20,000 bases of DNA from the IMG/VR virus record IMGVR_UViG_3300006033_000021; one strand, 5' to 3'. Within the stretch, counting starts at the first letter, position 1, and every line of letters begins with the position of its first letter. Below, one piece after another: positions 3,824 through 20,000 of the stretch. Below the pieces are notes generated by a model. It saw only the letters and a program-made list of their open reading frames with translations. It had not been told where the DNA came from and did not search any database. The position numbers were made by a program, and so were the translations under genes. Origin of the DNA: an uncultured virus (IMG/VR IMGVR_UViG_3300006033_000021) (Duplodnaviria > Heunggongvirae > Uroviricota > Caudoviricetes).

Positions 3824-3850
3824 CTCCTAGAGCGGGCTATACGCCTCATC

Positions 3851-3884
3851 CTTGAAATGAAAAATGGGTACTTTTCATTTCAAG
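3851..3884 (+). promoter_or_regulatory. 13-bp perfect hairpin just upstream of an RBS
   Basis: CTTGAAATGAAAA 3851-3863 / TTTTCATTTCAAG 3872-3884. Confidence 0.6.
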
Positions 3885-3898
3885 CCAAGGAGATAAGA

Positions 3899-4201: not shown

Positions 4202-4221
4202 GATTGGGTCATAGGTGCTAT

Positions 4222-4239
4222 AACTCCTATATAGGAGTT
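4222..4239 (+). promoter_or_regulatory. 18-bp palindrome containing the thymidylate synthase RBS
   Basis: AACTCCTATATAGGAGTT is its own reverse complement; AGGAG at 4233-4237; TG-c-TATAAC at 4216-4224. Confidence 0.65.
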
Positions 4240-4243
4240 TCAA

Positions 4244-5131: not shown

Positions 5132-5132
5132 A

Positions 5133-5534: not shown

Positions 5535-5593
5535 GAAAGATTCACTTACAACAAGAAAGTTAGAGGGTAATAGGGATATTCGGAGGTTGAATA

Positions 5594-6097: not shown

Positions 6098-6129
6098 TCC
6101 AACATCCCACAATTCAATCTATGAAGTTC

Positions 6130-6157
6130 GGCCCGCCGATTGGCGGGCCATCTCTTT
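6130..6157 (+). terminator. probable intrinsic terminator
   Basis: GGCCCGCC-GATT-GGCGGGCC followed by ATCTCTTT. Confidence 0.65.
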
Positions 6158-6160
6158 AGC

Positions 6161-6189
6161 TTGACACACCCGACCCGGTGTGCTATCAT
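6161..6189 (+). promoter_or_regulatory. sigma70-type promoter
   Basis: TTGACA 6161-6166, 17-nt spacer, TG-c-TATCAT 6184-6189. Confidence 0.85.
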
Positions 6190-6274
6190 AGAGGTATGGA
6201 ACCAATCCATTCGGCGATTCGCTGTTGCGCGGCTCTAAGATTGGATACACAAACAACTGAGAAGGAATAGTACA

Positions 6275-6766
6275 ATGTCTCGATCTTTCGTTCTGAAGCC
6301 GAATGCCACTCGACAGTACCCTGTGGTTATTGAGTATGATGCTGATGTCAAGTATGAGATTTTCCAAGCCTTTACGGGTGTTGGCGAAGATCGTAAAATG
6401 ATCGGCATGGGTGGCGTGGTTGTTGCTTTTATGCCCACTGATCAGCCGGATACTTATCTCGCTGGTGTGAGTATGTGTTCGCCCGAGGATGCCTTTGATA
6501 AGGAACTCGGTAAGCTGAAGGCTCTTGGTCGTATTACTGCCGAGCGCGAACGCAGCACCTTTGGTGTTGTTAAGCCTGCTGATGTCTCAATGCGTCAGTT
6601 GGCTCGCAAGGTGGTGCTGGAATTCATGGATATCAACGGCGTTCGTGGACATCATACGGATTACATCCACGAGCATTGTTTGTTCCCTGAGGATATGCCT
6701 GAGGACCTGAAGGCTCGACTGGTTGAGCAGGTCGATGGGATTACTTCGGTTTTCTCTAAGGTGTGA
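6275..6766 (+). CDS. phage protein with a Gp49/Gp66-like motif
   Basis: GVSMCSPEDAFDKELGKLKALGR fits the G-x-x-x-C-x-P-x-D-x-F-x4-G-x3-A-L-x-R phage motif; AAGGA RBS. Confidence 0.7.
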   Translation: MSRSFVLKPNATRQYPVVIEYDADVKYEIFQAFTGVGEDRKMIGMGGVVVAFMPTDQPDTYLAGVSMCSPEDAFDKELGKLKALGRITAERERSTFGVVKPADVSMRQLARKVVLEFMDINGVRGHHTDYIHEHCLFPEDMPEDLKARLVEQVDGITSVFSKV

Positions 6767-6778
6767 GGAATGTGTTAT

Positions 6779-6798
6779 GGGGGCTGGCAACAGCCCCC
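6779..6798 (+). terminator. GNRA-capped hairpin (no U-tract)
   Basis: GGGGGCTG-GCAA-CAGCCCCC directly after the stop at 6766. Confidence 0.55.
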
Positions 6799-6814
6799 GG
6801 CACAATTAAAAGAT

Positions 6815-7030
6815 ATGTCAACTAAAGCAGCTAAAACCAAAGTGGTATGTGTGGGATGTAATGATGATCCTGGTTTAAGCCGTGGATGTACTTTTTGTGG
6901 CGGTACAGGACAAATGGGAGCCCACACCCCAAAGGATATCATTTGGTCAGAAGATGATATTGCTGCTGAGCAAGATGGGCGCGGAACACAAAGCTATCGC
7001 GCTGGTCAAAAAGTAAGAAGAGTAGAATAG
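6815..7030 (+). CDS. small zinc-finger protein (DnaJ-like CxxCxGxG)
   Basis: CVGC...GCTFCGGTG. Confidence 0.6.
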   Translation: MSTKAAKTKVVCVGCNDDPGLSRGCTFCGGTGQMGAHTPKDIIWSEDDIAAEQDGRGTQSYRAGQKVRRVE

Positions 7031-7036
7031 CTATTT

Positions 7037-7123
7037 GGAGGGTTGCGAGAATCTGGTAATCGGCTCGGCTCGAACCCGAAGGCCCAGGTAACACTGGTGA
7101 AAGTTCAAATCTTTTGCCCTCCG
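7037..7123 (+). tRNA. tRNA-Ser(CGA)
   Basis: Acceptor GGAGGGT/GCCCTCC plus G73, anticodon loop CTCGAAC, long variable arm CCAG-GTAACA-CTGG, T loop TTCAAAT; no CCA. Confidence 0.9.
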
Positions 7124-7151
7124 TTGTTAGTCTTATAGATGAGGTATAGTA

Positions 7152-7427
7152 ATGAGTAACTTTAGAATCAACTTCGTAAGCGAGCAAAATGATGGCTCAA
7201 AAGTGTTTGTTCGTCAATGGGATGAATACCATTGGTATGCTGTCTTTATGTATGAAGATGCATTTGAGGCTACCAGATATTGCATCATGAATAGTGATGG
7301 CGACTGGAGGCTATTGCCTGCTGGTACTCGCAGCTATGCTACTCAGGAAATTATCGAGAGTGATGAACGCTTTAAGTCGCTTGATGATTTGGTGGCGATC
7401 CTTGAATTCTCTGAGGTGCCACTATAA
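7152..7427 (+). CDS. hypothetical protein
   Basis: GAGG RBS; coupled to the next ORF. Confidence 0.7.
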   Translation: MSNFRINFVSEQNDGSKVFVRQWDEYHWYAVFMYEDAFEATRYCIMNSDGDWRLLPAGTRSYATQEIIESDERFKSLDDLVAILEFSEVPL

Positions 7428-7753
7428 TGAATACCATGTTCGCCGAGCATCGTGTCGCTATCAACGATCTCATGATGTTTCAGATTGTCGGATTCTCAGG
7501 AGTCAACGATCAACATCACCATCATGTTTATGCTAGGCTTTTCCTGTTGGAAAGGGAGGAGCCTCGTGGTCATTATAAGACAACGGATCTCGGTAAGTGT
7601 TGGCAGTCAAAAGCATTTGATGCAATAGAGTACGATACTCCTACTTTCGGTTATCCTCAAGAGGTTGAAAAGGCTATTTGCTCTATCTTTGAAAAGGATC
7701 GTTGCCGATTCCAAATCTTAAATGAGAGTCTAGGTCATGCTAAGACTGATTAG
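7427..7753 (+). CDS. hypothetical protein
   Basis: TAATG coupling; GAGG RBS. Confidence 0.7.
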   Translation: MNTMFAEHRVAINDLMMFQIVGFSGVNDQHHHHVYARLFLLEREEPRGHYKTTDLGKCWQSKAFDAIEYDTPTFGYPQEVEKAICSIFEKDRCRFQILNESLGHAKTD

Positions 7754-8048
7754 TTCAATATGGTGGTTCGTGGCAGCTACATATGTATTCTGGCGAATCA
7801 TTAGGGATGGGCATACCCAGTTTACGATTTGGACCGCCATTCCCATTCTAGTTTGTTTGGGGATATATTGTACGATTATTGATTCTTTGTTGGCAACTAT
7901 CCGCGATCTTTCTAATGACTACAGAATGCATAGAATGCGTAAGAAGACAATTAAGAGTTTGCGTCAAAAGAATTCACCTGAGCAGCTTGAAGAAATGCTT
8001 CGGCACGCCGAAGCATTAGTAGAAAGGTTGAATAAACAACATGAATAA
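7737..8048 (+). CDS. membrane protein (two predicted TM helices, basic C-terminus)
   Basis: Hydrophobic segments LISSIWWFVAATYVFW and FTIWTAIPILVCLGIYCTII. Confidence 0.7.
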   Translation: MLRLISSIWWFVAATYVFWRIIRDGHTQFTIWTAIPILVCLGIYCTIIDSLLATIRDLSNDYRMHRMRKKTIKSLRQKNSPEQLEEMLRHAEALVERLNKQHE

Positions 8049-8337
8049 AGACAACAAGAAGCTAATTGGTCGCACTCATGGATATTACTACGCAATGAGC
8101 GGTGGTGTGTTCGTTAGTTGTCCATTCTCAGATCCTGTGATTAAGAAGTCTTGGAAAAAGGGCTGGAAGCAGGGTCAGCGCGTTCGTCAGGCTTTAATCA
8201 AGAAAGCATTCGGTCGTATCCCCAAGGCATTTATGGGTGAGTTAATGTGCGAACCATTGCGTATTGCTATTAACTACCAAAGTCTTGGTAGGTCGTTTCT
8301 AGACTTCTCTGAAGGAAATGTTGGGGTAATGCAATGA
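8041..8337 (+). CDS. RMF-like (ribosome modulation factor motif) protein with a capsid-like C-terminal segment
   Basis: GYYYAMSG...SCPF...KKSWKKGWKQG matches the RMF pattern GY..G...CPY...W..GW. Confidence 0.6.
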   Translation: MNKDNKKLIGRTHGYYYAMSGGVFVSCPFSDPVIKKSWKKGWKQGQRVRQALIKKAFGRIPKAFMGELMCEPLRIAINYQSLGRSFLDFSEGNVGVMQ

Positions 8338-8891
8338 AAGACGGATTGATTACTCGTGATGATATTCCACATTTTCCTCATTGGGGTGGCTATAGTATTC
8401 ATGTTTCATGGGATTATCTAGAATATCAGTTAGATCACTATAAGGCTGACTATAATCTTGACATGGATCCAGATTTTCAAAGAGCACATGTTTGGACTCG
8501 CCAGCAGCAAATTGCTTTCATCGAATTCAAACTGCGTGGGGGGTTATCGGGTAAGGATATCCTCTTCAATTATCCCGATTTTCAACGAAGTTCCTCCTTC
8601 ACTGATAAAATGCTATTGGTGGATGGAAAACAGCGTTTGCAGGCAGTACGGGAATTCTTGTGTGGAAACATTGGCATCTTTGCTGATCTCTTTGGGAAAC
8701 CTAAGTTCTATGGTGAGTTTGACCGCACAGTGTTTGGTATTACTGAGGTTAACTTTATCTTCCATATCAACTCTCTTCTTACTCGTAAGCAGGTTTTGGA
8801 ATGGTATCTGTCTCTTAACGCGGGTGGTACCCCACATACATCCGAAGAAATCACTAAGGTTGAGGGATTACTTGCAGAGGAATCATCATGA
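8334..8891 (+). CDS. stand-alone DUF262 (GmrS/ParB-like) protein
   Basis: PDFQRAHVW, LVDGKQRL and LNAGGTP motifs. Confidence 0.85.
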   Translation: MKDGLITRDDIPHFPHWGGYSIHVSWDYLEYQLDHYKADYNLDMDPDFQRAHVWTRQQQIAFIEFKLRGGLSGKDILFNYPDFQRSSSFTDKMLLVDGKQRLQAVREFLCGNIGIFADLFGKPKFYGEFDRTVFGITEVNFIFHINSLLTRKQVLEWYLSLNAGGTPHTSEEITKVEGLLAEESS

Positions 8892-9328
8892 TTTATACAT
8901 CCAAGATGTTGTTGCATATGTATCAGGCGGCGGATGATAGCTTCGAACCTTTCAAAGCACATATTCGTCGTTCCGAAGAGCTTCTTAAAGAACTCAAAGA
9001 TGCGCTCCAATTCTTGGAACGTGTATGGGCTGTTGGCGAGAACTATCTTATCTACTTCTTGATGGAGAAGGAACAGTGGGGGTGGATTCGTGGAGATATT
9101 GTCGATAAAGAAGAAGCAACCTCCATTAATTCAGTTTTCGCATATAATCAAGAGTACGATTATTCTTTTGATCATGGGCAAATTCCGAAGTGTCGCAAAC
9201 TTGAGTTTGTTTCAGGAATTACTCATGTTGGGGCTAAGACCTACGACACTCTTGAAGATGCTAAGGACGACATCATTAACTGGATTGTCAATAACACCCT
9301 TCCCGAAGAGACTGTCTCTGAGGAGTAG
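8888..9328 (+). CDS. hypothetical protein (tandem paralog A)
   Basis: Ends LEDAKDDIINWIVNNTLPE. Confidence 0.75.
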   Translation: MIYTSKMLLHMYQAADDSFEPFKAHIRRSEELLKELKDALQFLERVWAVGENYLIYFLMEKEQWGWIRGDIVDKEEATSINSVFAYNQEYDYSFDHGQIPKCRKLEFVSGITHVGAKTYDTLEDAKDDIINWIVNNTLPEETVSEE

Positions 9329-9330
9329 TC

Positions 9331-9753
9331 ATGACCAAAGAAGATTATGATAACTACGCCTTTGCTTTTGCCTATGCCGGGCGCGAGCAATTATGGGAGA
9401 TGATTGAAGATAGTAAGGCTAAGATCGATAAGCTTGAATCGGTCTTGAATTTTGCTGATAATATCATATGGATTCATGATAACCATATGATTTACTATGT
9501 TCCTTACAGAAATCAGTCGCGTATTCTTGCGACTGATTCAAATGGTCGCTCATGTGGTAGAAGTGTTAGGATTCATTATGATTCCTTGATCTTCTGCGGC
9601 GGGAACTTTGGTGGCATAGAAGATCCCCATTGGGATATAGAGGCTACAAAAGAATATGTTAATCTTTGTGATGGGCTAGAGCCCGCCAAAGACGATATCC
9701 TTAACTGGTTTATCCATGGTATCGTGCCCGATGGAGCCACTAATGCAACTTGA
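9331..9753 (+). CDS. hypothetical protein (tandem paralog B)
   Basis: GAGGAG RBS; ends LEPAKDDILNWFIHGIVPD. Confidence 0.75.
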   Translation: MTKEDYDNYAFAFAYAGREQLWEMIEDSKAKIDKLESVLNFADNIIWIHDNHMIYYVPYRNQSRILATDSNGRSCGRSVRIHYDSLIFCGGNFGGIEDPHWDIEATKEYVNLCDGLEPAKDDILNWFIHGIVPDGATNAT

Positions 9754-10129
9754 TGATGTGGTGGTTAGAAGTTTTACGGTCGCTTGGATAGTTGCAGGTA
9801 ATGGTGATTTTGAGCCAGGGGTATTACCCTGGGATAGATTTCAGTCGTATCAGCATGGGCTTGTTGATGAGATTACTGTAGAGTGGCGTGGTCATGGTCG
9901 GTATGGCGTTTTTTACTTTGGTTGTCGTCTCTCTAAAGAAGATTTTTGTTTCGATATGGAGCCGCTACCCAGTAATCGTACACAGGAATTCTTAGACGCG
10001 CATACATTTGATAGTATTGAAGAAGCCATTGATGGTGTATTGACCTATCTTGCTGCGCGCCCAGAACACATTAAGTACATGGTACATCCATCATTTATCA
10101 AGGAGAATAAAGATGTGCAAGAAAATTGA
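9743..10129 (+). CDS. hypothetical phage protein
   Basis: GGAG RBS 9733-9736, ATG 9743. Confidence 0.7.
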   Translation: MQLDDVVVRSFTVAWIVAGNGDFEPGVLPWDRFQSYQHGLVDEITVEWRGHGRYGVFYFGCRLSKEDFCFDMEPLPSNRTQEFLDAHTFDSIEEAIDGVLTYLAARPEHIKYMVHPSFIKENKDVQEN

Positions 10130-10580
10130 CCGTTTTGAGGGCAAGTACGAATTCTTATCAAACTTCTATGTTCTAGAGCACCCTATTACAATTTGGTTAA
10201 AGGGGCAAGGCTACGACTTCTATCACACAGAGGGTGCCTTCCAGGCTAGTAAGTGTGATAATATCGAAGATATTGATCGATTCCTCGGTCTACGACCGGG
10301 CCAGACAAAGCGGTTAGGTCGCAATGTTAAGCTGCGTTCAGATTGGGAAAATGTAAAGATCGATGTGATGACTCAGGTTGTTAGGCAGAAGTTTGAATGT
10401 AATCCTGAGTTGTTACAACGTCTCCTAGATACTGCTCCTGCCAAATTGGAAGAAGGCAATAATCACGGAGATCAGGTCTGGGGTACTGTTGATGGTGTCG
10501 GCACTAATTACTTAGGTAAGGTTCTGATGAAGATCAGAGATGAATTCCAGGCTGCACGAGAGGCGAAAGATGGCGAGTAA
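10113..10580 (+). CDS. NADAR (YbiA-like) family protein
   Basis: FLSNFY, TEGAFQASK, KRLGR..LRSDW, KF..NPEL..LL.T, EGN..GD.VWG, G.NYLG..LM.IR; AGGAG RBS. Confidence 0.92.
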   Translation: MCKKIDRFEGKYEFLSNFYVLEHPITIWLKGQGYDFYHTEGAFQASKCDNIEDIDRFLGLRPGQTKRLGRNVKLRSDWENVKIDVMTQVVRQKFECNPELLQRLLDTAPAKLEEGNNHGDQVWGTVDGVGTNYLGKVLMKIRDEFQAAREAKDGE

Positions 10581-10758
10581 ACCTAACTCTATTACATTGA
10601 GATGGGAAGCTATTACGGGCGGTGGCTTTAAGACCGAAGGTAAGGGTGTCTTTGAGAACGAGGATGCTTTGCGCGCAATCTTAATTGATCAAGGTTATCG
10701 CGTCACCAGTATTACTCAAGAATACAATGGAAAGCAATCTCTTCAAAGGAAGAATTGA
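10570..10758 (+). CDS. small protein resembling the PilC/GspF N-terminal segment
   Basis: WEAITGGGFKTEG...ENEDALRAILIDQGYRVTSI. Confidence 0.6.
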   Translation: MASKPNSITLRWEAITGGGFKTEGKGVFENEDALRAILIDQGYRVTSITQEYNGKQSLQRKN

Positions 10759-11282
10759 TGCCTACATTTCTTTACTCTGCACGAGCAGGTAAGTGTCTTA
10801 CCCAAGGATGTACGGACGCAGAGAACGTTGATGTCCTAAAAGAAAGATTGGAAGCACAGGGGTATCATTTAATTGATGTTGAGCCTTGGATTCGATTAAC
10901 GGGTGAGCAACTTCAAGTTCTATTTGATTTACTCACCTTCTTAGGACAAGGTTCACAGTATCTTTCTGATCTTAAACGTCTTCCTATCTCTAGCTTTGAC
11001 GACTATCTCTTTGTAGCAAAACACAAGAAGTATATCAATATCGCTACAAAGGATAAAACCCACCAATTGATTTCTTTGTCCCGCGCCGGTAAGAAATTCC
11101 TGGGCACTTGCGAGAAAGTGCATCTTGTTGTACGCAATCGTTACAAGATTCCTTTAGTTGATCATGATAAGATAAGAGATGCTATTTGTAATTTCCGAAA
11201 GGAATTGCATGATAGTTTGTCAGTTTTTAGTAATATGCCAACAAGAACAAGGCATATTGTTATAGGGGAGAGGAGTAAGTGA
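10758..11282 (+). CDS. protein with a PilC/GspF-like N-terminus and an unrelated C-terminal domain
   Basis: MPTFLYSARAGKCLTQGCTDAENVDVLKERLEAQGYHLIDV; TGATG coupling. Confidence 0.65.
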   Translation: MPTFLYSARAGKCLTQGCTDAENVDVLKERLEAQGYHLIDVEPWIRLTGEQLQVLFDLLTFLGQGSQYLSDLKRLPISSFDDYLFVAKHKKYINIATKDKTHQLISLSRAGKKFLGTCEKVHLVVRNRYKIPLVDHDKIRDAICNFRKELHDSLSVFSNMPTRTRHIVIGERSK

Positions 11283-11653
11283 TGCCAAGATACTTGTTAT
11301 TTATGGGTGAAAATTACTATCCCGTAGGCGGGTGGGATGACTATGTGGCATCCTCGGATTCGATTGAGGAACTTCAGGCACGCATCCAATGGAGGCGATA
11401 TGACCCTAGCGAAGTTATAGAGAAGCTTCTCATCAATAAAAGAAAATTCCCAAAATTAGCTGAGCGTTTAGATGGGGAAATTGATAGGCAAGAGGCTCTT
11501 AAAGGAAAAGTAAACCGACAGTATTTCTTAGTGGGAGATCAAGCCAAGAGCTTTAATTGGCTACATATCGTAGACTTAGAAACCATGGAAATATGCTTCA
11601 GCTTCACAGACAAATGGGCTAATATGAAGGAGAATACAGATGCCGTGTCATGA
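11282..11653 (+). CDS. phage hypothetical protein (YLLF..YYPxGGW motif)
   Basis: GAGGAG RBS; motif recurrent in phage proteins. Confidence 0.75.
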   Translation: MPRYLLFMGENYYPVGGWDDYVASSDSIEELQARIQWRRYDPSEVIEKLLINKRKFPKLAERLDGEIDRQEALKGKVNRQYFLVGDQAKSFNWLHIVDLETMEICFSFTDKWANMKENTDAVS

Positions 11654-12011
11654 TGCTTGGATGGATCGTATAGCTGAACAAGAGAAGATTGATGAATTAA
11701 CGCGAATGCTATGTTGGCTTTGCGGGACATTAGAAGGTGACAATGAGGGAGATAAGATTCTAGTTAATCCTAAGCTTAAGAAGTGGTGGAAAGAACACAA
11801 AAAGAGCGACACTGATCGTGTTCGCGCTGAAATGAGGAAGATCGTTAAAGACAATGATCGCAAAAGGAAGAATAAGCAAGTACTGATTCCTGCTGATATT
11901 GCTGCTGAGTTTATTGCGCGAGCCGAAGCAGTACATGCCGTGAGTGATTTTCATAAGACATGGTTTCATCAATTGGCACGGGAAGTGATTGGTAATCCAA
12001 CAGAGGGATAG
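11640..12011 (+). CDS. phage hypothetical protein (MPC..LC..WW.EH motif)
   Basis: AAGGAG RBS. Confidence 0.75.
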   Translation: MPCHDAWMDRIAEQEKIDELTRMLCWLCGTLEGDNEGDKILVNPKLKKWWKEHKKSDTDRVRAEMRKIVKDNDRKRKNKQVLIPADIAAEFIARAEAVHAVSDFHKTWFHQLAREVIGNPTEG

Positions 12012-12049
12012 TGATAGTTACCATAGAAATCTATCATAGGAGACAACCC

Positions 12050-12346
12050 ATGAGAGATTTACTAGATATCGTTATCGCTAAAGTTCAAAACCGCTCCTCT
12101 TTTACACTCACTGAGGCTAAAGAGATCGGCAAAGAATTAGGAATAGATTGGGATGAGGTTGATGTCGATGAATTTCATAGAGGTCTACAGGTTGAATTAG
12201 AACATGGTCTAACTGATCCCGACACCGATATAACGCATGATAGCCCAGTTGAAACGGGGAAAATTGCGTGGGCTCATCTTAAAGAATTACCTGATTACTA
12301 TACTAGATTAGATAAAATGGAAAAAGAAGGTAAGGAAAATGCTTAA
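12050..12346 (+). CDS. DUF5661 family protein
   Basis: GLQVELEHG...TGKIAWAHLKELPDYYTRL..ME; AGGAG 12038-12042. Confidence 0.8.
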   Translation: MRDLLDIVIAKVQNRSSFTLTEAKEIGKELGIDWDEVDVDEFHRGLQVELEHGLTDPDTDITHDSPVETGKIAWAHLKELPDYYTRLDKMEKEGKENA

Positions 12347-12587
12347 CTTCACTAGGCAGCTTCGTAATATGAATGAAGAAGAATTCGAGCAATATGCTTC
12401 CTCAGCATGTGGTCGTGATCCCGTGGCAGCAATGATGCTTAGAGCTAGGTATGAGGCTGCGAACGCCGTGAATCCTTGTAGCATCGGGGCTACGTTTACT
12501 CGCGCGCCCGAGATCGACACAGAGCATCCAGGTTTCTGGTATGGTCGCAGACACTATTCGGCGCAGGGTGTGTTGTTGTCTTCTTAG
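12339..12587 (+). CDS. hypothetical protein (paralog of 12611-12847)
   Basis: RQLRNMNEEEFEQY...C..DPVA. Confidence 0.7.
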   Translation: MLNFTRQLRNMNEEEFEQYASSACGRDPVAAMMLRARYEAANAVNPCSIGATFTRAPEIDTEHPGFWYGRRHYSAQGVLLSS

Positions 12588-12610
12588 TGATATATGGATG
12601 GGGCTAAATA

Positions 12611-12847
12611 ATGCAGGAAAAACATTGGGCGTCTGCTCGTAATCTTAAGGCTATGAGCGATCAGGAATTTGAGCAACATCTTGTGGATGATTGCGCCACA
12701 AGTCCAGTTGCTATGGCTCGATTAAGGTTAAAGCGTCACGGGCTGCTTCAAGATCATCGTGTTTTGATTGATGCTTCTCAGGCTGCTTTACCCGAGGAGA
12801 CTAGGAAAATTGCCTATAGCATTAATGGCGTTGAATATGTGTGTTAG
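12611..12847 (+). CDS. hypothetical protein (paralog of 12339-12587)
   Basis: RNLKAMSDQEFEQH...C..SPVA. Confidence 0.7.
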   Translation: MQEKHWASARNLKAMSDQEFEQHLVDDCATSPVAMARLRLKRHGLLQDHRVLIDASQAALPEETRKIAYSINGVEYVC

Positions 12848-12868
12848 ATATCGATTTTTGAATAGGGG

Positions 12869-12897
12869 TTGACAAGCACGCGGCGACGTGCTACAAT
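12869..12897 (+). promoter_or_regulatory. sigma70-type promoter of the tRNA/ncRNA cluster
   Basis: TTGACA 12869-12874, 17-nt spacer, TG-c-TACAAT 12892-12897. Confidence 0.85.
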
Positions 12898-12913
12898 AAG
12901 GATATGAGATAGG

Positions 12914-12987
12914 GGCCGGGTAGCCCAATTGGTAGAGGCAACAGATTCAAGTCCTGTAAAGTATGGGTTCGAATCCCATCCCGGCTA
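12914..12987 (+). tRNA. tRNA-Leu(CAA), short variable loop
   Basis: GGCCGGG/CCCGGCT plus A73, loop TTCAAGT, T arm ATGGG-TTCGAAT-CCCAT. Confidence 0.85.
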
Positions 12988-13012
12988 TAGTATACGAGAA
13001 ACAGAATACCCT

Positions 13013-13086
13013 GCCTGGGTAGACCAATTGGTAGAGTCAATAGTCTTAGGAACTATGTAGTATGGGTCCGAATCCCATCCCAGGTA
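13013..13086 (+). tRNA. tRNA-Leu(TAG), short variable loop
   Basis: GCCTGGG/CCCAGGT plus A73, ATAGT-CTTAGGA-ACTAT, T loop TCCGAAT (non-canonical). Confidence 0.85.
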
Positions 13087-13331
13087 TTAACACCAACCAC
13101 AAGGAGTACGTAACAGGCAGTGATTATCGGACCATTCAATGGCTTTAGCACCTTAGCTCTGTTGATCACATCTAAGGTCGAGTCAAGCTATAAGAGCTAC
13201 GAAGAGTACCGTTGATATCCAATCATCTCTTAGGAAGAAGCCTCGACGGAGGAAAAGGTCTAGACCGGATGATTGGCTCTACAGCGTGTGGATGCGACAT
13301 CTTATAGCAGCCTGTTGTGGTTGGTGTTAAT
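13086..13331 (+). ncRNA. unassigned ~245-nt structured RNA
   Basis: Perfect 17-bp closing stem (13086-13102/13315-13331) with nested helices; the ORF track shows no ORF here. Confidence 0.7.
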
Positions 13332-13345
13332 TTTGGAGAAGACAG

Positions 13346-13675
13346 ATGAGTAGCACTCTAATTGTTGATTTCAATGAGGGCGTAGTTGATGTTTTGATTC
13401 AGAATGGCGTAGAGCCAAGATTGGCTGAAAAGACATGGCAACTACTTTCTGAATATCAAGCCCATTGGCAAGAAGATAGAGCTATGCTCCCCGTGAAGAT
13501 GCACTCCTATCATTCTCTTCAGATTTCCTTGCATCGCTACTATTGTGGTTGTATGGATAGCGTACATCCTGGGGTGTGCGTCAAAGAGACCGGAAAAGGT
13601 CACGTCCAAGAATTGTTAATCTCTCCCCGGCTGCTCCAAAATTACGACTACCACAAAGTTCTCCAAGATGATTAA
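13346..13675 (+). CDS. hypothetical protein
   Basis: GGAG RBS. Confidence 0.7.
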   Translation: MSSTLIVDFNEGVVDVLIQNGVEPRLAEKTWQLLSEYQAHWQEDRAMLPVKMHSYHSLQISLHRYYCGCMDSVHPGVCVKETGKGHVQELLISPRLLQNYDYHKVLQDD

Positions 13676-13689
13676 AGAGGAAACTTCCA

Positions 13690-14451
13690 ATGGGAACACC
13701 TGATTACTTCTGGGGGCATAATAGTTGTCCTAAATGCAATACGCAGCAACTAGTTATGATGCAAACTAAAGATTTGCATCGTGAGATGTCATATTGGGGA
13801 CCATATGAATTGGTTGAGCCCAATATGTTCCAGACTTTTGAGGATGTGCATGGAACTGTTTGTAAACAGTGTGGTGAGAAGTTCTATAATTCAGTAACTG
13901 TTGCCGCAGGTCATGTTGTTCCATTTGATGTTGTTCCGCCAACTCCGACTGATACTCATCAGATCATCAACTTCCTTACTAATGGTCTTCAGTATCGAGC
14001 AGATATGGCTAGAGAGCAACGCAATAAGATTGATTTGCTCTGCCAGTATCTATTTTGCAAGCTTGGCGGGTATCGTGAGTGGGCTAATCTTCCCGATGAT
14101 TCTTGGGCGGCTGATAGCTATAGGACTAGAGCCGACGAGTTAGCGAATGTGGGACTTCCCCTCAATATTCCTTATGGTCAAATCGTCTTTGATGTCTATA
14201 GGTACATCGAGGAGAAAATCCTAGAACGTGCTAATGGGCATTATAGTATTACCCCCAAACCTTCACCCGGCCTTGAGCTTGTTTTGCAAATCCGTGGCGA
14301 AGATGCCGAAGAACTTCAGGATATCCTGGTGATGCTTGGTAGGGAGATCTCGGAAGGCTATATTTCTGGCTTCAATAGCAATGATACGAGCAGCTACAAC
14401 TATCGTATTATTGGTGAGCCAATCGAGCACACAGATGACGAGGAAGCTTGA
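13690..14451 (+). CDS. hypothetical protein with two CxxC motifs
   Basis: CPKC...QTKD...CKQC; GAGG RBS. Confidence 0.75.
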   Translation: MGTPDYFWGHNSCPKCNTQQLVMMQTKDLHREMSYWGPYELVEPNMFQTFEDVHGTVCKQCGEKFYNSVTVAAGHVVPFDVVPPTPTDTHQIINFLTNGLQYRADMAREQRNKIDLLCQYLFCKLGGYREWANLPDDSWAADSYRTRADELANVGLPLNIPYGQIVFDVYRYIEEKILERANGHYSITPKPSPGLELVLQIRGEDAEELQDILVMLGREISEGYISGFNSNDTSSYNYRIIGEPIEHTDDEEA

Positions 14452-14858
14452 TGGATAACTTTAAGCTCGATGTTCAATCCGAAGGTGAAGATCAGCTATA
14501 TCAGGCTCTTCGTCTAGCTTTTGAGCGTTTGCACCATGAAGTAAAAGCTGTTGGCTATACCTTATCAGAAGAGTATGGTCTAGTATTCCACACTTATCGT
14601 TATGATGTTCCTGAGAAAATGGGAGCTTGGAATGAGCTTCCATTTAGGGCAGATGCTAAGTTCTGCGCTATTATGGCTTGGAATTGGTTGCAGACATTAT
14701 CTAAGGATGATAAGTTTGCTAAATTACCAAGAACCCAGTCTTTTGATGGGAGTGTCGCGCCGGGTTGGCGCGTCTATACAGACGATTGGGGTAAAGTAGG
14801 TTGCTGTCCCTCAGCATTCGTTGGGGTTCTCTATAAAATAGCTTTGTACGGGAAGTAA
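14451..14858 (+). CDS. phage hypothetical protein (DGS..GWRVY..WG motif)
   Basis: TGATG coupling. Confidence 0.75.
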   Translation: MDNFKLDVQSEGEDQLYQALRLAFERLHHEVKAVGYTLSEEYGLVFHTYRYDVPEKMGAWNELPFRADAKFCAIMAWNWLQTLSKDDKFAKLPRTQSFDGSVAPGWRVYTDDWGKVGCCPSAFVGVLYKIALYGK

Positions 14859-14859
14859 A

Positions 14860-15102
14860 ATGCATCACTGTCCATTTTGTAAGACACAATTGATTCGTGG
14901 CGAAAACAAAGAGTACGAAACGGGGATAGAGCATGTTTTTAACCCTAATCAAGAACATTTCCCTGTTAGATCTACCTGGGTCTGCGATAATTCTGACTGT
15001 GTAGCTCACACTGCTCAGGTTTGGTGGAATTGTCTGGGGGAACCATCGATGGAACTCATCAAGGTTAAGGTGCCACTTCCAGAAAATATTCACTCTAAGT
15101 AG
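14860..15102 (+). CDS. small Cys-rich protein
   Basis: CPFC...CDNSDC. Confidence 0.65.
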   Translation: MHHCPFCKTQLIRGENKEYETGIEHVFNPNQEHFPVRSTWVCDNSDCVAHTAQVWWNCLGEPSMELIKVKVPLPENIHSK

Positions 15103-15158
15103 GTAATGCGCAGGGTCAAAAAGAACCACTTCACAGCAACTTAAGGTGGAAATACTCT

Positions 15159-15515
15159 ATGGAACACAACATTGTTGGACTTTTGCGCTTCTGGAAGATT
15201 ATCACAGACCTGGAACAGTCCGATAAACGCCATAAAATCCTTCGTTTCTTTGGTGCTCCTGATGAGTTTGTAAAAGATAGTAATTGCTCTTTCTTGCAAC
15301 TATATACAGGGAAAATTCTTGAGTTAAATGGTAAAAAAGCTACTTGTATTTTAGTAGAAAAAGACGGTAAAACTTCCAGGGTAATTCTACAGGCGACTCA
15401 GTTACTCAAAGAGAAAATTGGAGTTAATGACTATTTTGCCTATATCATTGTTAGGCGGGGCTTAGATACTAGAACCCTTTACAAGAAATTGGAAACTAAA
15501 GCTGAAAAGAGCTAA
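15159..15515 (+). CDS. hypothetical protein
   Basis: 118 aa ORF in a co-directional gene run. Confidence 0.65.
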   Translation: MEHNIVGLLRFWKIITDLEQSDKRHKILRFFGAPDEFVKDSNCSFLQLYTGKILELNGKKATCILVEKDGKTSRVILQATQLLKEKIGVNDYFAYIIVRRGLDTRTLYKKLETKAEKS

Positions 15516-15518
15516 ATT

Positions 15519-16235
15519 ATGAAAGCCGACAAATGGGATCCATGGCATGTGCTGTGGGGATTTAAGTCTGTACATAATGACTATCAATTGGGAAAGAAGC
15601 TGGATATTGATGCTTGGGATATGATGTATTATGATACTCCAGGATGTCTCATTAATCGTTGGCAAAGCCTTTACAATAGACAGTGGCGGTTGTATCATAA
15701 TTGGCAACACGTAAAGGATATGCTGGCGCTTGCTGAACGTCATTATCGCGGCCCTCGCAAGCACCGAGCCGCATTGGTGCTTGCTATCATGGCTCACGAT
15801 TTAATCATCGATAGCGATGATAATGAAGCTGCAAGTTGTTGGGAGCTTCGCAAGAAAATGCGCGTATACGCTGCGGCTGCGGAACATGTTGGGTACTCAA
15901 AGCTACTGCGAAAGATCAATAAGAGTGTAGATGAGGCTTGTCGCCTTATCATGCTGACTAAAACGCATACTACTGAGCCCAACGATAGTGTGGGTTGGTT
16001 TATGATCCTATTGGATCTCCATATCCTGACCGCTCCTCGTGAGAAATATCAGATCTATCGTAAAGGTGTGATGCGGGAGTATGAGCATATGGGTGTGTCG
16101 TCTCAGCAGTTCAACATTGGAAGAAGTCACTGGATCGAAACAATGATGGGCAAGGTTGATTCGCTACCCGAGCTAATCCCAGGTGATAAACAGCGAATAG
16201 TAGATAATCTATTTGTTGAACTTAGTGCAATGTAA
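15519..16235 (+). CDS. HD-superfamily metal-dependent phosphohydrolase (COG4339-like)
   Basis: RLYHNWQH, LAIMAHD, DNEAAS, LIMLTKTH, DLHIL..Y..Y...V.REY..F..GR. Confidence 0.8.
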   Translation: MKADKWDPWHVLWGFKSVHNDYQLGKKLDIDAWDMMYYDTPGCLINRWQSLYNRQWRLYHNWQHVKDMLALAERHYRGPRKHRAALVLAIMAHDLIIDSDDNEAASCWELRKKMRVYAAAAEHVGYSKLLRKINKSVDEACRLIMLTKTHTTEPNDSVGWFMILLDLHILTAPREKYQIYRKGVMREYEHMGVSSQQFNIGRSHWIETMMGKVDSLPELIPGDKQRIVDNLFVELSAM

Positions 16236-16247
16236 AGGATAGCTATC

Positions 16248-16967
16248 ATGTCAGAAGACCGCGCGACGCAAATGGAAAATGCCAAGCATTTTCTTAGGGC
16301 TTTTCAGTTAAGTCATTATAAGCATAGGGCCAAGAACGTCCCCGTCATTCGTAATCCTGTGCTACCTCGGGTGTTGCTGAGCGTTGATGAGGTTCCGCAG
16401 GGAGTGGCATTCCATCTTCGGCCTCATGAGTCGGAAAAGTCTTTTTGGTTGACTAAGGACCATAAGGTCGAGGTTGCATCCATTGAGACCGTTGAAAATG
16501 GCGATGATTACATTAGGGTACCAGAGTTCCAAGTCGTTGCTAAAGATGCTGTGTCTATTGACGCCACTTTTGATGCTATTCAAGAACAAGAAGATGCTAT
16601 TTTCTGGAAGCTTTTCACGGAAGCGGTGGGGTCGCTTTCATCGGGCATTACTACAATTGAGCCCGGTCAGGTTGTTTCAATCTTAGACGCTAGTAAGATG
16701 TACCGCATCATTGTTATTGCTGACAATGATGAGCTTGAAGCTCATGTAAAATCATGGGACATTAACAACTGTATGATTGTGAGGACAAAACAGATCAAAA
16801 CTTCCGCATGTTATGTCATGAAAGATCCATTGTGTGTCGGTACTTATCTCCTACGACAAGAATATACCATCTTACCCGATGGCGATCAATTCGTAGGATT
16901 TATCATCGCAGGAATGTTGCTTACCCCTGGGGATGACAACATTATTGTATTCAACCTAGAAATCTAA
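16248..16967 (+). CDS. possible degenerate major capsid protein paralog
   Basis: LLSVDEVPQG, VPEFQV, IQEQEDAIF and VGTYLLRQEYTILP resemble, from memory, a large-phage HK97-fold capsid family. Confidence 0.5.
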   Translation: MSEDRATQMENAKHFLRAFQLSHYKHRAKNVPVIRNPVLPRVLLSVDEVPQGVAFHLRPHESEKSFWLTKDHKVEVASIETVENGDDYIRVPEFQVVAKDAVSIDATFDAIQEQEDAIFWKLFTEAVGSLSSGITTIEPGQVVSILDASKMYRIIVIADNDELEAHVKSWDINNCMIVRTKQIKTSACYVMKDPLCVGTYLLRQEYTILPDGDQFVGFIIAGMLLTPGDDNIIVFNLEI

Positions 16968-16975
16968 GGAAAACA

Positions 16976-17449
16976 ATGAAGACGCAAGAGCAAATGATGG
17001 AGCAGTGGCTCCCCGTAGCTAAGACCGCCCCTATCTATAAGAAGACAGCAACTGTTAAGGCTCGTCTGGTTGGCCCCGGCGTTAGTGTCACTACGACTAC
17101 TTCGGATGGCAAGGAAACGCAAATGGTTTCTGACGCCGAGTATAATGTGCTGACTACTAACCCTGGTGGGGAACAGTATTTGGTCAAGCAGTCCAAGTTT
17201 GAGCCTCGCTATCTTATGGATAACCCTCTAAGTCATGATGATCAGGTTTATCAGGCAAAGGGGCGTATTAAGGGTGTTGTTATCCCCAAGGATACGGAGC
17301 CATTTGAGTTTGTCGCTGCTTGGGGTGAGGCTATGGTTGCGAAGCCCGGCGATACATTGGCGGTTCCTATCAATGACGATAATGAACTTGCAGACGAGAT
17401 CTATCGTATCGCCAAGCTTGAATTTGAGCAAACATACGGACTAGAGTGA
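16976..17449 (+). CDS. PGDYG-like protein
   Basis: YKK...VKAR, GEQYLV...FEPRY, WGEAMVAKPGD, YRIAK.EFEQTY. Confidence 0.65.
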   Translation: MKTQEQMMEQWLPVAKTAPIYKKTATVKARLVGPGVSVTTTTSDGKETQMVSDAEYNVLTTNPGGEQYLVKQSKFEPRYLMDNPLSHDDQVYQAKGRIKGVVIPKDTEPFEFVAAWGEAMVAKPGDTLAVPINDDNELADEIYRIAKLEFEQTYGLE

Positions 17450-17455
17450 CTGTAA

Positions 17456-17488
17456 AGCCAGGGGGCTGTGAAAACAGCCCCCTTGGCG
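17456..17488 (+). terminator. GNRA-capped hairpin
   Basis: AGGGGGCTGT-GAAA-ACAGCCCCCT (17460-17483); no U-tract. Confidence 0.55.
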
Positions 17489-17498
17489 GAAGACTCCC

Positions 17499-17927
17499 AT
17501 GAAATTGCATGAATGGTTATTGGAACTAGAGGGCGTGTGCGATCAAGCTACTCCCGGCCCTTGGATTGCTCATTTTGATCAAAATGGTGGCGGGCAAGTT
17601 GAGACTAATGAAGGCGTCTATATCCCCGTCATTAATGAGGATTTGACCCTAAGTGAAGTCGCTAGAGCCGCCATTCCTAAATTGATAGCTATGCTTCCTC
17701 AGGAAGATCCGTGGTTGTTTGAGTTAACAACTATTTGCAATCAAGCTACGCCGGGGCCATGGCTTGCGGTTTTTAAGATGTGGCATAGTTGGCTCATTAG
17801 GCAATCCACCCGTGAGCGCGTCCCTGTTGTCCCTGATGATCTTACGTTTAGCGCGGCGGCGCGTGAGGCACTACCTAAGCTCATAGCTATGGTGCGCCAG
17901 TCTTGTGATATGAATCAAGAGGTGTAG
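17499..17927 (+). CDS. Ead/Ea22-like protein with an internal tandem duplication
   Basis: Two copies of W-L-x-E-L...C-x-QATPGPW...DLT.S..AR.A.PKLIAM. Confidence 0.75.
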   Translation: MKLHEWLLELEGVCDQATPGPWIAHFDQNGGGQVETNEGVYIPVINEDLTLSEVARAAIPKLIAMLPQEDPWLFELTTICNQATPGPWLAVFKMWHSWLIRQSTRERVPVVPDDLTFSAAAREALPKLIAMVRQSCDMNQEV

Positions 17928-17929
17928 TT

Positions 17930-18316
17930 ATGTCTTACTATACTAGATATTCCTTAAGAATTCAACCTTTTAATGTGCCGAATATCTCAAAAGATAGCCC
18001 CTATGCTCAGTTTATTCCCAGTGTACCTCATCCAAGGGATATCTATGAGGAATTAGCAGAAGAACTTGTGCCAAACGAAGATGCATATTATGGTCTTACT
18101 AATGATGAGCAATCTTGCTGGTATGGGCACGAAAAAGATATGGCAAAATTCAGCAGGAAATATCCCAATCATCTCTTCATCCTAACAGGGCAGGGTGAAG
18201 AGAGAGACGATCTTTGGACTAAGTATTTCTTCAACGGTCGTGTTCAAACTGAAAGAGCGAAGATTCTATTTGGTGACTTCGACCCTTCAAAGCTCACTGA
18301 ACCAAGGGAGATGTAA
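17930..18316 (+). CDS. phage hypothetical protein (WY..H..DM..S.KYP..LF.L.G.GEE..D.W motif)
   Basis: GAGG RBS. Confidence 0.8.
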   Translation: MSYYTRYSLRIQPFNVPNISKDSPYAQFIPSVPHPRDIYEELAEELVPNEDAYYGLTNDEQSCWYGHEKDMAKFSRKYPNHLFILTGQGEERDDLWTKYFFNGRVQTERAKILFGDFDPSKLTEPREM

Positions 18317-18738
18317 TGCAACAAAATGAATTCCTCGCCATAGTCCTTGAGGTTATGAAGGGTAGATATGTGATGCGAAAGCAGAAAGATAGCTATCGCA
18401 CTATCTATAAAACCCTATACTACACCAAGAAAATAGCGTCTCCACTAGAGATTTTGATCTACAACCATAAAACACATGTCGGAATTTCTACATATGGTGC
18501 TGGCCCAGCGTCTATCAACCATGAAGATTATGATGATGGTGATTGCAATGTAAAGGCAATTGTATCTAAGATCTCTCCTGATATCTCTTGGGATGATATG
18601 AATAAGGTGATGGAGAAATTGGTGACTTGGGAAGTCGAAGAATATGGTTACTATAACTCACAGTCCTTAGATGTCTATAGGGGAATCTCTTTAGGTAATC
18701 TCTATGATGCCCTCGTTGAACTTGGTATTATATCGTAA
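18316..18738 (+). CDS. hypothetical protein (paralog of 1369-1815)
   Basis: TAATG coupling; shared C-terminal motif. Confidence 0.75.
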   Translation: MQQNEFLAIVLEVMKGRYVMRKQKDSYRTIYKTLYYTKKIASPLEILIYNHKTHVGISTYGAGPASINHEDYDDGDCNVKAIVSKISPDISWDDMNKVMEKLVTWEVEEYGYYNSQSLDVYRGISLGNLYDALVELGIIS

Positions 18739-18747
18739 GGAAATATC

Positions 18748-19104
18748 ATGTTGCACGCACCGATTTCTCGTATTATAGAAACCTGGGAAAAGCTATTTGA
18801 GGCTAAGAACGATTGCAATCCCTATGGTGGGGATGTCGCAGAGATTTATTTTTCCAGGTTAATGCCGCACTGGAATAGTTACGCGGCTGTGCCTGATGAG
18901 TATCCTAAAGAGGAAAAACACGCGACTGAAGGTTTGATAGAACTTTGTGTGCTTTTTATGCAAATGCACCCTGATTGTAAGATTTTAGTTGAAGACCTTC
19001 AAGAGCAAACTGAGACTTGGCCTGATCGTATATGGTCTGAAGATCTATCCTTGATTAAGAAGTGGAGTATTCGTGTTCATCTGAAAGTGGTGGCACAACC
19101 ATGA
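18748..19104 (+). CDS. hypothetical protein
   Basis: AAGGA RBS. Confidence 0.7.
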   Translation: MLHAPISRIIETWEKLFEAKNDCNPYGGDVAEIYFSRLMPHWNSYAAVPDEYPKEEKHATEGLIELCVLFMQMHPDCKILVEDLQEQTETWPDRIWSEDLSLIKKWSIRVHLKVVAQP

Positions 19105-19499
19105 ATATGACAGATGAGGCTTATCGTATATGCTCATTCTCAAAGAATGAAGATGCCCCCGACGGTGGCCCGCCTGTCGCAATTGATCGTAGATGCATTC
19201 GACGCGCGTTGGATCTTTTGTTGGCTATTTCTCGTCAGCGTTTTGAGTGCTATAGTATTTTAGACGGCTCTGATGGGTGTGTTTGGTTTAGTTGGGATAA
19301 TAGCGATCAGTTTGCTGAAGTTGCTTGTTATCCCAAGGCATTTTGTATCATTCTAGAGGATAATCAAGGTTATGAACTAATCCGTGCCTATGATCCCACA
19401 GAATATGGTATCAATACTTGTATTGCGGTTGTGAGACAATTTGTCGAGCATGGTATTAAGCCCATAGAAGAAAAAGAACCAGTCCCAAATATGGCTTGA
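19101..19499 (+). CDS. hypothetical protein
   Basis: ATGA coupling; its stop overlaps the next promoter's TTGACA. Confidence 0.7.
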   Translation: MNMTDEAYRICSFSKNEDAPDGGPPVAIDRRCIRRALDLLLAISRQRFECYSILDGSDGCVWFSWDNSDQFAEVACYPKAFCIILEDNQGYELIRAYDPTEYGINTCIAVVRQFVEHGIKPIEEKEPVPNMA

Positions 19500-19524
19500 C
19501 AGCCGCAGCCCTCCGTGCTATAAT
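19496..19524 (+). promoter_or_regulatory. consensus sigma70 promoter
   Basis: TTGACA 19496-19501, 17-nt spacer, TG-c-TATAAT 19519-19524. Confidence 0.9.
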
Positions 19525-19531
19525 AAGGATA

Positions 19532-19658
19532 GTGATGAACGAGCACCGGCGAGAGCGGGCTGGTAAGAGCGAGAGCCATAACCGGAATGCTTAGGGACTT
19601 TTCTCTCGACCCTAAGAGCTAATGGTGGAGCGGGGTGGGGAATCCCGCCGGACATCAC
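19532..19658 (+). ncRNA. unassigned ~127-nt structured RNA or 5' leader
   Basis: GC-rich and starts at the predicted TSS; stems GTGATG/CATCAC, CCGGCG/CGCCGG and CTTAGGG/CCCTAAG, plus a GAGA tetraloop. Confidence 0.55.
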
Positions 19659-19680
19659 AGTACATAGAAAAAGAGACATC

Positions 19681-19875
19681 ATGGCAAAGCTGACAATTAC
19701 AATCAGTGGCTCAAGTTCCGCCTCTAAGGCGGACATGGCTGAAAAGCTAAAGTCTTGGTTGTATATTCAGTATGGCTATACTGATGTTACTGTTGATAGA
19801 GGTCAGTACGGACCCGGCGAGATGCTCAAAGGATTCTGTAGCGACGAAACAGCAGAAATTAAGATCGAGAAGTAA
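19681..19875 (+). CDS. small hypothetical protein
   Basis: 64 aa; ITISGSSSASKA resembles a degenerate P-loop. Confidence 0.6.
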   Translation: MAKLTITISGSSSASKADMAEKLKSWLYIQYGYTDVTVDRGQYGPGEMLKGFCSDETAEIKIEK

Positions 19876-19883
19876 TAAAGCTT

Positions 19884-19955
19884 GCGCCCATAGCACAATG
19901 GACAGTGCCGTAGCCTTCTAAGCTTCTTATCCAAGTTCGATTCTTGGTGGGCGTA
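19884..19955 (+). tRNA. tRNA-Arg(TCT)
   Basis: GCGCCCA/TGGGCGT, D arm GCAC/GTGC, loop CTTCTAA, T arm CCAAG-TTCGATT-CTTGG; no CCA. Confidence 0.92.
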
Positions 19956-20000
19956 TTTTAGGGAAAATCAATGCTAAAAGCTAGTCAACTGTTGCTAGAT

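Follow-up and report, generated by a model that had tools for sequence, protein, structure and literature searches.

A conserved, strongly folded non-coding element of a phage tRNA operon is a candidate new structured RNA

What is a long, non-coding and strongly folded stretch doing between a pair of transfer RNA (tRNA) genes and the next open reading frame (ORF) of a tightly packed phage region? In this work we have investigated 20,000 nucleotides (nt) of DNA from an uncultured virus of the Caudoviricetes (IMG/VR record IMGVR_UViG_3300006033_000021), a stretch which we call the window, and specifically a 245-nt element at positions 13087-13331 which lies directly downstream of two tRNA genes and just upstream of ORF109, a frame of 109 amino acids (aa). 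An initial annotation, made from the sequence alone, had described an unassigned, non-coding and strongly folded stretch on the transcribed strand right after the tRNA pair, and this description has held. The element is real: it belongs to a phage tRNA operon and is conserved, non-coding and strongly folded, and no ORF of at least 50 aa was found within it. On its sequence it may credibly be regarded as a candidate new structured RNA. Our leading explanation, which we hold tentatively, is that it gives rise to a processed, nuclease-resistant RNA which is cut from the transcript of the tRNA operon and acts in trans.

The two ends of the element are joined by a perfect 17-base-pair (bp) inverted repeat (13086-13102 / 13315-13331, 100% complementary). 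We estimate from 6e6 position pairs x 4^-17 that chance would give about 3.5e-4 perfect inverted repeats of this length, within 300 nt, in 20 kb, and a 16-mer of the terminal repeat has no third copy in the window, even when 3 mismatches are allowed. The + strand of the element folds with an energy of -87.0 kcal/mol (z = -4.89), and none of 200 shuffled sequences folded as well. Between the terminal helix and the second one lies a one-sided bulge of 10 unpaired bases (13103-13112) on the 5' side only. The second helix contains the pairing CAGGC/GCCTG (13114-13118 / 13310-13314), and the larger of two side hairpins is built on the arms ACCTTAG/CTAAGGT (13150-13156 / 13172-13178). Both side hairpins are predicted to branch from the lower stem, which would give the whole the shape of a closed, branched rod, and the apical rod (13219-13276) includes a 6x6 purine-rich internal loop. 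The GC content of the element, 0.457, is compared with 0.436 and 0.44 in the flanks. Adding the next 120 nt downstream or the tRNAs upstream leaves the predicted fold as it is, so that the element would be an autonomous folding domain. Every pairing listed in the initial annotation, the perfect terminal stem included, was found again in our analysis at the coordinates given there. The large internal bubble which had been drawn at 13196-13218 / 13277-13299 did not survive: this part is predicted to be largely paired, with probabilities of 0.93-0.99 (a thermodynamic prediction only). A local hairpin at 13285-13296 competes with the better-supported long-range helix and was not counted as evidence; we also made no use of the fact that it would turn two of the changes in a relative described below into improvements from G.U to G-C. 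A 9-nt string, TCTTAGGAA, is shared by the anticodon arm of the tRNA(UAG) (13044-13052) and the apical rod of the element (13228-13236). By our estimate the chance expectation of such a match is about 0.06. Mimicry of an anticodon arm was considered and rejected; the flanks of TCTTAGGAA in the element form no anticodon stem.

Along the + strand the order is promoter, two tRNA-Leu genes, element and ORF109 (Table 1). The 5' boundary of the element is one base past the discriminator A13086 of the second tRNA, and the 3' arm of its terminal helix is followed by UUUGG and the Shine-Dalgarno sequence, with 4 nt between the helix and GGAG. Neither tRNA has an encoded CCA and in both the variable arm is short. 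The initial annotation had proposed that tRNA 3' processing would create the 5' end of the element, and the sequence agrees with this, given CCA-less tRNAs and a helix which begins one base past the discriminator. A promoter search of the window found no promoter-like site between 12897 and 13346, and no convincing terminator was found between the promoter at 12869-12897 and ORF109; the element would therefore be part of the 5' untranslated region of ORF109 in the primary transcript. The single candidate for an intrinsic terminator in the element itself is a weak stem of 5 pairs, and we rejected it; the base of the terminal helix is AU-rich. Gene order, the common promoter and the lack of an internal one agree with co-transcription of the element and the tRNAs. 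Among the public sequencing runs, no RNA run carries this stretch.

Table 1. Coordinates of the transcription unit and of the helices predicted within the element.
Feature	Position	Strand	Details
Near-consensus sigma-70 promoter TTGACA-17-TACAAT with TG	12869-12897	+	11/12 hexamer matches; heads the unit
tRNA, anticodon CAA, 74 nt	12914-12987	+	ARAGORN; Rfam RF00005, 57.0 bits
tRNA, anticodon UAG, 74 nt	13013-13086	+	discriminator A13086; ARAGORN; Rfam RF00005, 54.2 bits
Structured non-coding element, 245 nt	13087-13331	+	fold, no Rfam match, conservation in L003
Terminal helix	13086-13101 / 13316-13331	+	mean pair probability 0.95
Second helix ACAGGC/GCCUGU	13113-13118 / 13310-13315	+	pair probability 0.97
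Smaller side hairpin	13119-13136	+	poorly determined, pair probability 0.17-0.28
Side hairpin UGGCUU/GAGUCA + ACCUUAG/CUAAGGT	13140-13185	+	pair probabilities 0.69 and 0.81
Helix GCUAUAAGA/UCUUAUAGC (DNA GCTATAAGA/TCTTATAGC)	13187-13195 / 13300-13308	+	pair probability 0.99
Irregular helix CG/CG, UAC/GUG, CGUUG/CAGCG	13200-13214 / 13282-13296	+	pair probabilities 0.93-0.99
10-bp helix CCAATCATCT/GGATGATTGG	13219-13228 / 13267-13276	+	9 Watson-Crick pairs + one U.G; pair probability 0.99
Apical 5-bp helix UUAGG/UCUAG	13230-13234 / 13259-13263	+	pair probability 0.85
Apical hairpin CCUC-GACG-GAGG	13241-13252	+	pair probability 1.00
Apical segment GGTCTAGACC	13257-13266	+	
Shine-Dalgarno GGAG (13336-13339) and ORF109 (109 aa, ATG 13346; 13346-13675)	13336-13675	+	

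Is the element a member of a known family? None of the 4227 families of Rfam matched it at the gathering score, and it was again left without a family at E <= 10, with permissive filters, in a comparison of 12850-13400. Only tRNAs pass the gathering score in its neighbourhood. The sole match at E <= 10 which touches the element is to rydB, with 12.9 bits against a cut-off of 50, and a match to YrlA (15.5 bits against a cut-off of 69) falls over the tRNAs and not over the element. No covariance-model match in the element was obtained for ribonuclease (RNase) P, transfer-messenger RNA (tmRNA), signal recognition particle (SRP) RNA, 6S, YrlA, T-box, group I intron, GOLLD, ROOL or self-cleaving ribozymes, and ARAGORN found no tmRNA. 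The absence of RNase P, tmRNA and SRP signatures noted in the initial annotation is thus upheld, and the comparison with Rfam which had been proposed there yields no known family.

The sequence collections gave a similar picture. In 50,697 GenBank phage records, blastn matched only the tRNAs of this region, and the element alone gave chance matches of up to 29 nt; the next ORF had no match by tblastn, and 72,556 plasmids contained no similar DNA. Two exact words of the element had no match among the IMG/VR viral contigs, and the tRNA end, ORF109 and two other neighbour proteins had no useful match there; for the neighbouring DUF5661 protein these contigs gave one weak, unrelated locus. In species genomes, two exact words of the element and one word of a tRNA-Leu from a relative (L003, see below) were also without a match. 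A degenerate pattern of the promoter type fetched 71 viral loci, none of which contains the element by blastn or nhmmer, and the pattern is therefore that of a generic consensus promoter. The element occurs once in the window, once each at the same site in L003 and in a further relative, L002, and in none of 72 other loci. Word searches of open-access text, which cannot show absence, found no published description of the element or of a phage 6S mimic.

More can be said from the relatives, L002 and L003, which we found by a metagenome scan with ORF109. L002 is identical to the window over the aligned 861 nt. L003 is collinear with window positions 13088-16681 at 87.2% identity over 3598 nt, and its ORF109 is 72% identical. 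Upstream of the element only the promoter is common to both (blastn, 79% over 57 nt). In L003 the element lies at 851-1095 and is 98% identical to that of the window, as against an average of about 87% in the flanks; within the 245 nt there are 4 substitutions (13287, 13292, 13293 and 13306) and one inserted G. The longest run of identity between the window and L003, 199 nt, is found here (13088-13287), followed by runs of 123, 104 and 90 nt. According to our calculation, the probability that a stretch of 199 nt would stay unchanged at the average divergence is about 1.5e-12. Homology with L003 resumes exactly one base past the discriminator of the L003 tRNA-Leu(CAG), that is, at the junction of tRNA and element. 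Between promoter and element L003 has different tRNAs, one of them containing an intron and the other a long-arm tRNA-Leu(CAG) at 767-850, and it would seem that a tRNA cassette was swapped between a conserved promoter and a conserved element. The first of these tRNAs (L003 426-745) contains a group I intron at 461-682 (RF00028, 50.8 bits), and we read its exons as a long-arm tRNA-Leu(CAA).

Words of 31 nt from the element are present in 4 sequencing runs from 4 studies. The first run, X1, comes from freshwater and is possibly the window's own source and not independent, and the second, X2, comes from a landfill and is of the L003 type. X3, again from freshwater, provides a 151-nt contig over 13092-13243 with 2 differences and a 1-nt deletion at 13219. 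X4, whose source is not recorded, provides a 151-nt contig over 13109-13218 with 2 differences; its unaligned end shows the same junction of tRNA end and element as L003 and three further changes, C13094>T, C13100>T and G13106>A. The element thus adjoins a tRNA in the window, in L003 and in X4.

Seven substitutions have visible positions, 4 in L003/X2 and 3 in X4, and all seven leave the predicted fold intact. Four fall on positions which are predicted to be unpaired; the L003 changes at 13287, 13292 and 13293, as well as the extra G, all lie on such positions in the region of the irregular helix. The other three are at paired positions and consist of C>U opposite G (13094 and 13100) and A>G opposite U (13306). 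The last of these, in which A13306 is replaced by G in L003 and X2, converts a U-A pair into U.G in the helix 13187-13195 / 13300-13308. All three produce G.U pairs in RNA of the + strand and would be C.A mismatches on the other strand. We estimate that seven neutral changes out of seven would occur by chance with a probability of about 0.05, under a transitions-only model in which about 2/3 of random changes are neutral. Judged against the predicted fold, the pattern gives modest support to selection on the RNA fold of the + strand.

How could the element come to act as an RNA? Under the explanation which we favour, transcription would start at the 12869 promoter and produce an early, tRNA-led phage unit which continues through ORF109 into later genes. 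Cuts by RNase P and, after the discriminator, by a 3' endonuclease would release the CCA-less tRNAs and leave the 5' end of the element at U13087, and this new end would at once be sealed to the 3' end of the element by the perfect 16-17-bp helix. The terminal helix may work in the manner of the processing stalk of a ribosomal RNA (rRNA) operon, either protecting the ends or being cut by an RNase specific for double strands. Separation from the messenger RNA (mRNA) of ORF109 could occur through a cut in this stalk or in the AU-rich single-stranded UUAAUUUUGG just after the helix. The product would be a compact, nuclease-resistant, branched rod of about 220-245 nt which acts in trans on a partner from the host or the phage; as a decoy or sponge it could, for example, tie up a host RNA-binding factor involved in defence or decay. 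We consider it possible, and would put it no higher than that, that the element founds a new class of compact phage RNAs which act in trans during early infection. If this is true, it would be a small and tractable counterpart of the unexplained T4 RNAC/RNAD and ROOL/GOLLD RNAs.

Several of our results weigh against this explanation. The minus strand folds as well as the + strand (z = -5.26). We also scanned the whole window in overlapping pieces (250-nt windows, step 125) with 20 dinucleotide shuffles for each. The z of the element was then -3.83, and 6 of 218 other windows were as low or lower; the background mean was -1.3 for 118 windows on both strands of 1-7500 and -0.8 for + strand windows of 7376-20000. 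The whole region is thus more stable than its shuffles (mean z -0.8 to -1.3), and the coding windows 1376-1625, 3001-3250 and 14626-14875, with z of -4.3 to -5.1, are as low as the element or lower. Fold energy alone fails to single out the element; what does single it out is the perfect end-to-end helix, the absence of coding and the conservation. The comparative set is small, with two distinct full-length sequences of the element and two fragments. The two full-length sequences show two-sided changes at none of the 81 predicted pairs and a one-sided change at one of them, and two further one-sided changes come from the X4 fragment. The contigs of X3 and X4 have a depth of 2-6, and in X4 the 3' arms are not seen. 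The identity between the window and L003 is a mosaic with several other identical runs of 90-123 nt, so a recent recombination tract, and not constraint, could account for the 199-nt run. Neither of the two remaining tRNAs (7036-7124 and 19883-19956) is followed by a comparable trailer. Finally, a position 4 nt from the Shine-Dalgarno sequence of ORF109 suits a role in cis just as well.

The other identical runs, at 14410-14514, 15119-15242 and 15902-15992, include two which span gene junctions or intergenic spacer. Such runs could be linkers of mosaic recombination or conserved translation-start regions.

Could the element then be a cis-acting 5' leader which stays attached to the mRNA of ORF109? 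This is the main rival explanation, and we regard it as a serious, if somewhat doubtful, possibility. A helix at the very first nucleotide would shield an mRNA with a 5'-monophosphate from 5'-end-dependent decay, as stabilisers of the ompA type do, and the leader may also tune the translation of ORF109. The layout fits well: the terminal helix runs from one base past the discriminator to 4 nt before the GGAG of ORF109, no promoter or convincing terminator separates the two and, provided that cleavage occurs after A13086, the mRNA would begin with the helix (from 13087), followed by the Shine-Dalgarno sequence (13336) and the ATG (13346). However, a stabiliser needs a short hairpin only, not 245 nt whose loops and helices are unchanged over 199 nt. 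Conservation is unusually high in the first ~100 nt of ORF109 as well (92-94% in windows of 100 nt), but the Shine-Dalgarno sequence and the AUG lie outside the element and do not enter any alternative pairing with it in longer folds. Elsewhere in the window, a different closed structure of ~130 nt lies between the similar promoter at 19496-19524 and an ORF, so structured leaders may be a habit of this phage; the mRNAs which follow the other two tRNAs, however, have no such structure. If the element is only a 5' leader, it would show how a phage protects an mRNA whose 5' end is left as a monophosphate when the tRNAs are cut out.

It may also be asked whether the element needs to act as RNA at all. 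It could be a spacer or a palindrome which matters at the DNA level, such as the relic of a miniature inverted-repeat transposable element (MITE) or a recombination linker for tRNA cassettes, with its apparent conservation due to a recent recombination tract. We consider this unlikely. Perfect terminal inverted repeats of 16-17 bp and a length of 245 bp are MITE-like, but the element is present in a single copy in the window and across the 75 fetched loci, was seen in only 4 sequencing runs and has no copies in the viral or genome collections (two exact words each). There is no target-site duplication: the flanking bases in L003 extend the inverted symmetry and form no direct repeat, and the window flank, TTAA, is its own complement and uninformative on this point. 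The role of a linker is suggested by the upstream tRNAs, which differ completely between the window and L003; since promoter and element are shared, the exchange occurred at exactly the border of tRNA and element. The mosaic identity profile with its other long identical runs also speaks for this view. On the other hand, the element occupies the same site relative to ORF109 in lineages which are 13% apart, and an old neutral insert should diverge like its flanks, which it also resembles in GC content. Both strands fold equally well, which favours a role at the DNA level, yet every substitution at a paired site is of a type which only RNA of the + strand tolerates.

A further alternative, which we think very improbable, is that the element is the mRNA of a very small protein. 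The window and L003 both contain, without any difference, a frame of 31 codons with a GTG start (13120-13215), and its hydrophobic start and charged tail loosely resemble the peptides of type I toxins, whose mRNAs pair their 5' and 3' ends. The hydrophobic stretch is however short and moderate (Kyte-Doolittle mean of about 1.4 over 17 residues by our estimate), and 31 codons are unremarkable where six frames of at least 20 aa overlap the element on both strands. A Shine-Dalgarno-like AAGGAG lies in the unpaired bulge (13102-13107), but at 13 nt upstream of the GTG the spacing is long. The frame is wholly inside the invariant tract, which makes a comparison of synonymous and non-synonymous changes impossible, and the promoter search found no antisense promoter. 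Small frames in the 3' part of the element are broken by the 1-nt insertion in L003.

The weakest explanation, to which we give almost no credence, is the earlier suggestion of a loosely 6S-like rod with a bubble, which would make it a phage RNA that binds the host RNA polymerase as a mimic of an open promoter: the long closing helix, the overall rod shape and a location in a region of the early host-takeover type under a sigma-70 promoter would suit it, but no 6S model of Rfam (RF00013 and related) matches at gathering score or at E <= 10, the central bubble is predicted to be paired (0.93-0.99), two side hairpins sit on the lower stem, and the word searches of open-access literature found no phage-encoded 6S mimic. 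The initial annotation had also named a protein sponge or an antitoxin mimic as possible roles. A mimic of a type III antitoxin was considered and rejected, as the element has no tandem repeats, unlike the RNAs of type III antitoxins.

Some observations concern the neighbours of the element. The anticodons CAA and UAG of the two tRNAs are those of leucine, and the variable arm of both is short, in contrast to the long arm of a normal bacterial tRNA-Leu. The two genes are 79% identical to each other, and blastn against the GenBank phages found similar genes labelled tRNA-Leu in phages of Streptomyces, Bacillus and cyanobacteria. Among 5.8 billion proteins there are only two ORF109 proteins, 72% identical to each other, and the lineage is therefore rare. 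ORF109 matched no Pfam or PHROG family; its structural look-alikes in the Atlas all scored below 0.8, and with a predicted local distance difference test (pLDDT) of 0.50 for its own model it gave no lead. It has a conserved stretch H-x3-C-x-C-x4-H, and the longest contig with ORF109 measures 78,409 nt.

The rest of the window resembles the accessory region of a large phage, with nearly all sizeable ORFs on the + strand and four tRNAs in total. Matches to PHROG and Pfam comprise HD phosphohydrolases, a thymidylate-synthase-like protein, GmrSD_N, NADAR and DUF5661. The GmrSD match is a short protein with only the N-terminal domain (8334-8891; PF03235, 1.8e-11), and a protein with a NADAR domain (10050-10580; PF08719, 4e-21) lies in the same strand block, which is upstream of the element. 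Both would fit an accessory or counter-defence region. Four promoters on the + strand have the form TTGACA-17-TAnnAT and a TG upstream; they lie at 118-146, 6161-6189, 12869-12897 and 19496-19524 and are spaced ~6.0-6.7 kb apart. A strong GC hairpin terminator (6130-6149) precedes the second. The third and fourth share an extended similarity of 44 nt which includes GTGCTAYAATAAGGATA, the paralogous copy being at 19488-19531. The GC-rich structure of ~130 nt after the fourth promoter (19532-19660) is closed by GUGAUG/CAUCAC, has no Rfam match and is followed by a Shine-Dalgarno sequence, an ORF of 64 aa (19681-19875) and a tRNA-Arg; the lowest z of the sliding scan, -5.39, belongs to 19626-19875. 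A glycine-rich repeat region at 3201-3620 consists of imperfect GGYGGY repeats with a period of 27-54 nt inside an ORF.

Which known systems does the element resemble? In the processed RNA its helix would start with the first nucleotide, as in 5' stem-loops of the ompA type, and long-range pairing of its ends would enclose a structured RNA in a polycistronic transcript which also contains tRNAs, as in the stalks of rRNA operons. It differs from an ompA-type stabiliser in being far larger and more conserved in sequence than such a function needs. With 6S RNA it has in common the long closing helix and the rod-like outline, and differs in the lack of a model match, the paired state predicted for the bubble and the side branches. 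In E. coli the spacer known as 3'ETS-leuZ is short and base-pairs with small RNAs (sRNAs) bound to Hfq, whereas the element is predicted to be an almost fully self-paired rod of 245 nt which leaves little sequence free, and what comes after it is an ORF, not a terminator. The likeness lies in the origin: 3'ETS-leuZ is released from the 3' trailer of a tRNA-Leu as the glyW-cysT-leuZ pre-tRNA matures, and acts in trans as a sponge of sRNAs (PMC8383071). A similar release and action in trans are what we propose here.

Phages have repeatedly put structured RNAs beside tRNA genes, among them T4 RNAC and RNAD, ROOL and GOLLD, and to our knowledge none of these has an established role. The element is larger than RNAC and RNAD. 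None of the GenBank phages, T4 among them, resembles it in sequence, and it is known here from DNA, whereas the two T4 RNAs are described as small stable non-tRNA RNAs of the T4 tRNA region with an unknown role (PMC3014915). What the element shares with them is that a non-tRNA RNA would lie inside a phage tRNA unit with ends expected from the tRNA-processing enzymes (PMC3014915). ROOL and GOLLD are structured phage RNAs "often near tRNA islands", and many members of GOLLD exceed 800 nt (PMC12286853). Like them, the element is predicted to be structured, is borne by a phage and is located beside tRNA genes; unlike them, it has 245 nt, is known from one rare lineage only and does not match their Rfam models. 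The element thus shares its genomic logic with T4 RNAC/RNAD, ROOL/GOLLD and 3'ETS-leuZ, but no similarity of sequence or model. Its predicted architecture is simple, and the ends of its 245 nt would be set by processing of a known kind. Two variants which follow different tRNAs exist in nature, and its size suits probing, structure determination and pull-downs. If it is a discrete stable RNA, it would offer a tractable route to what the RNAs of tRNA islands do.

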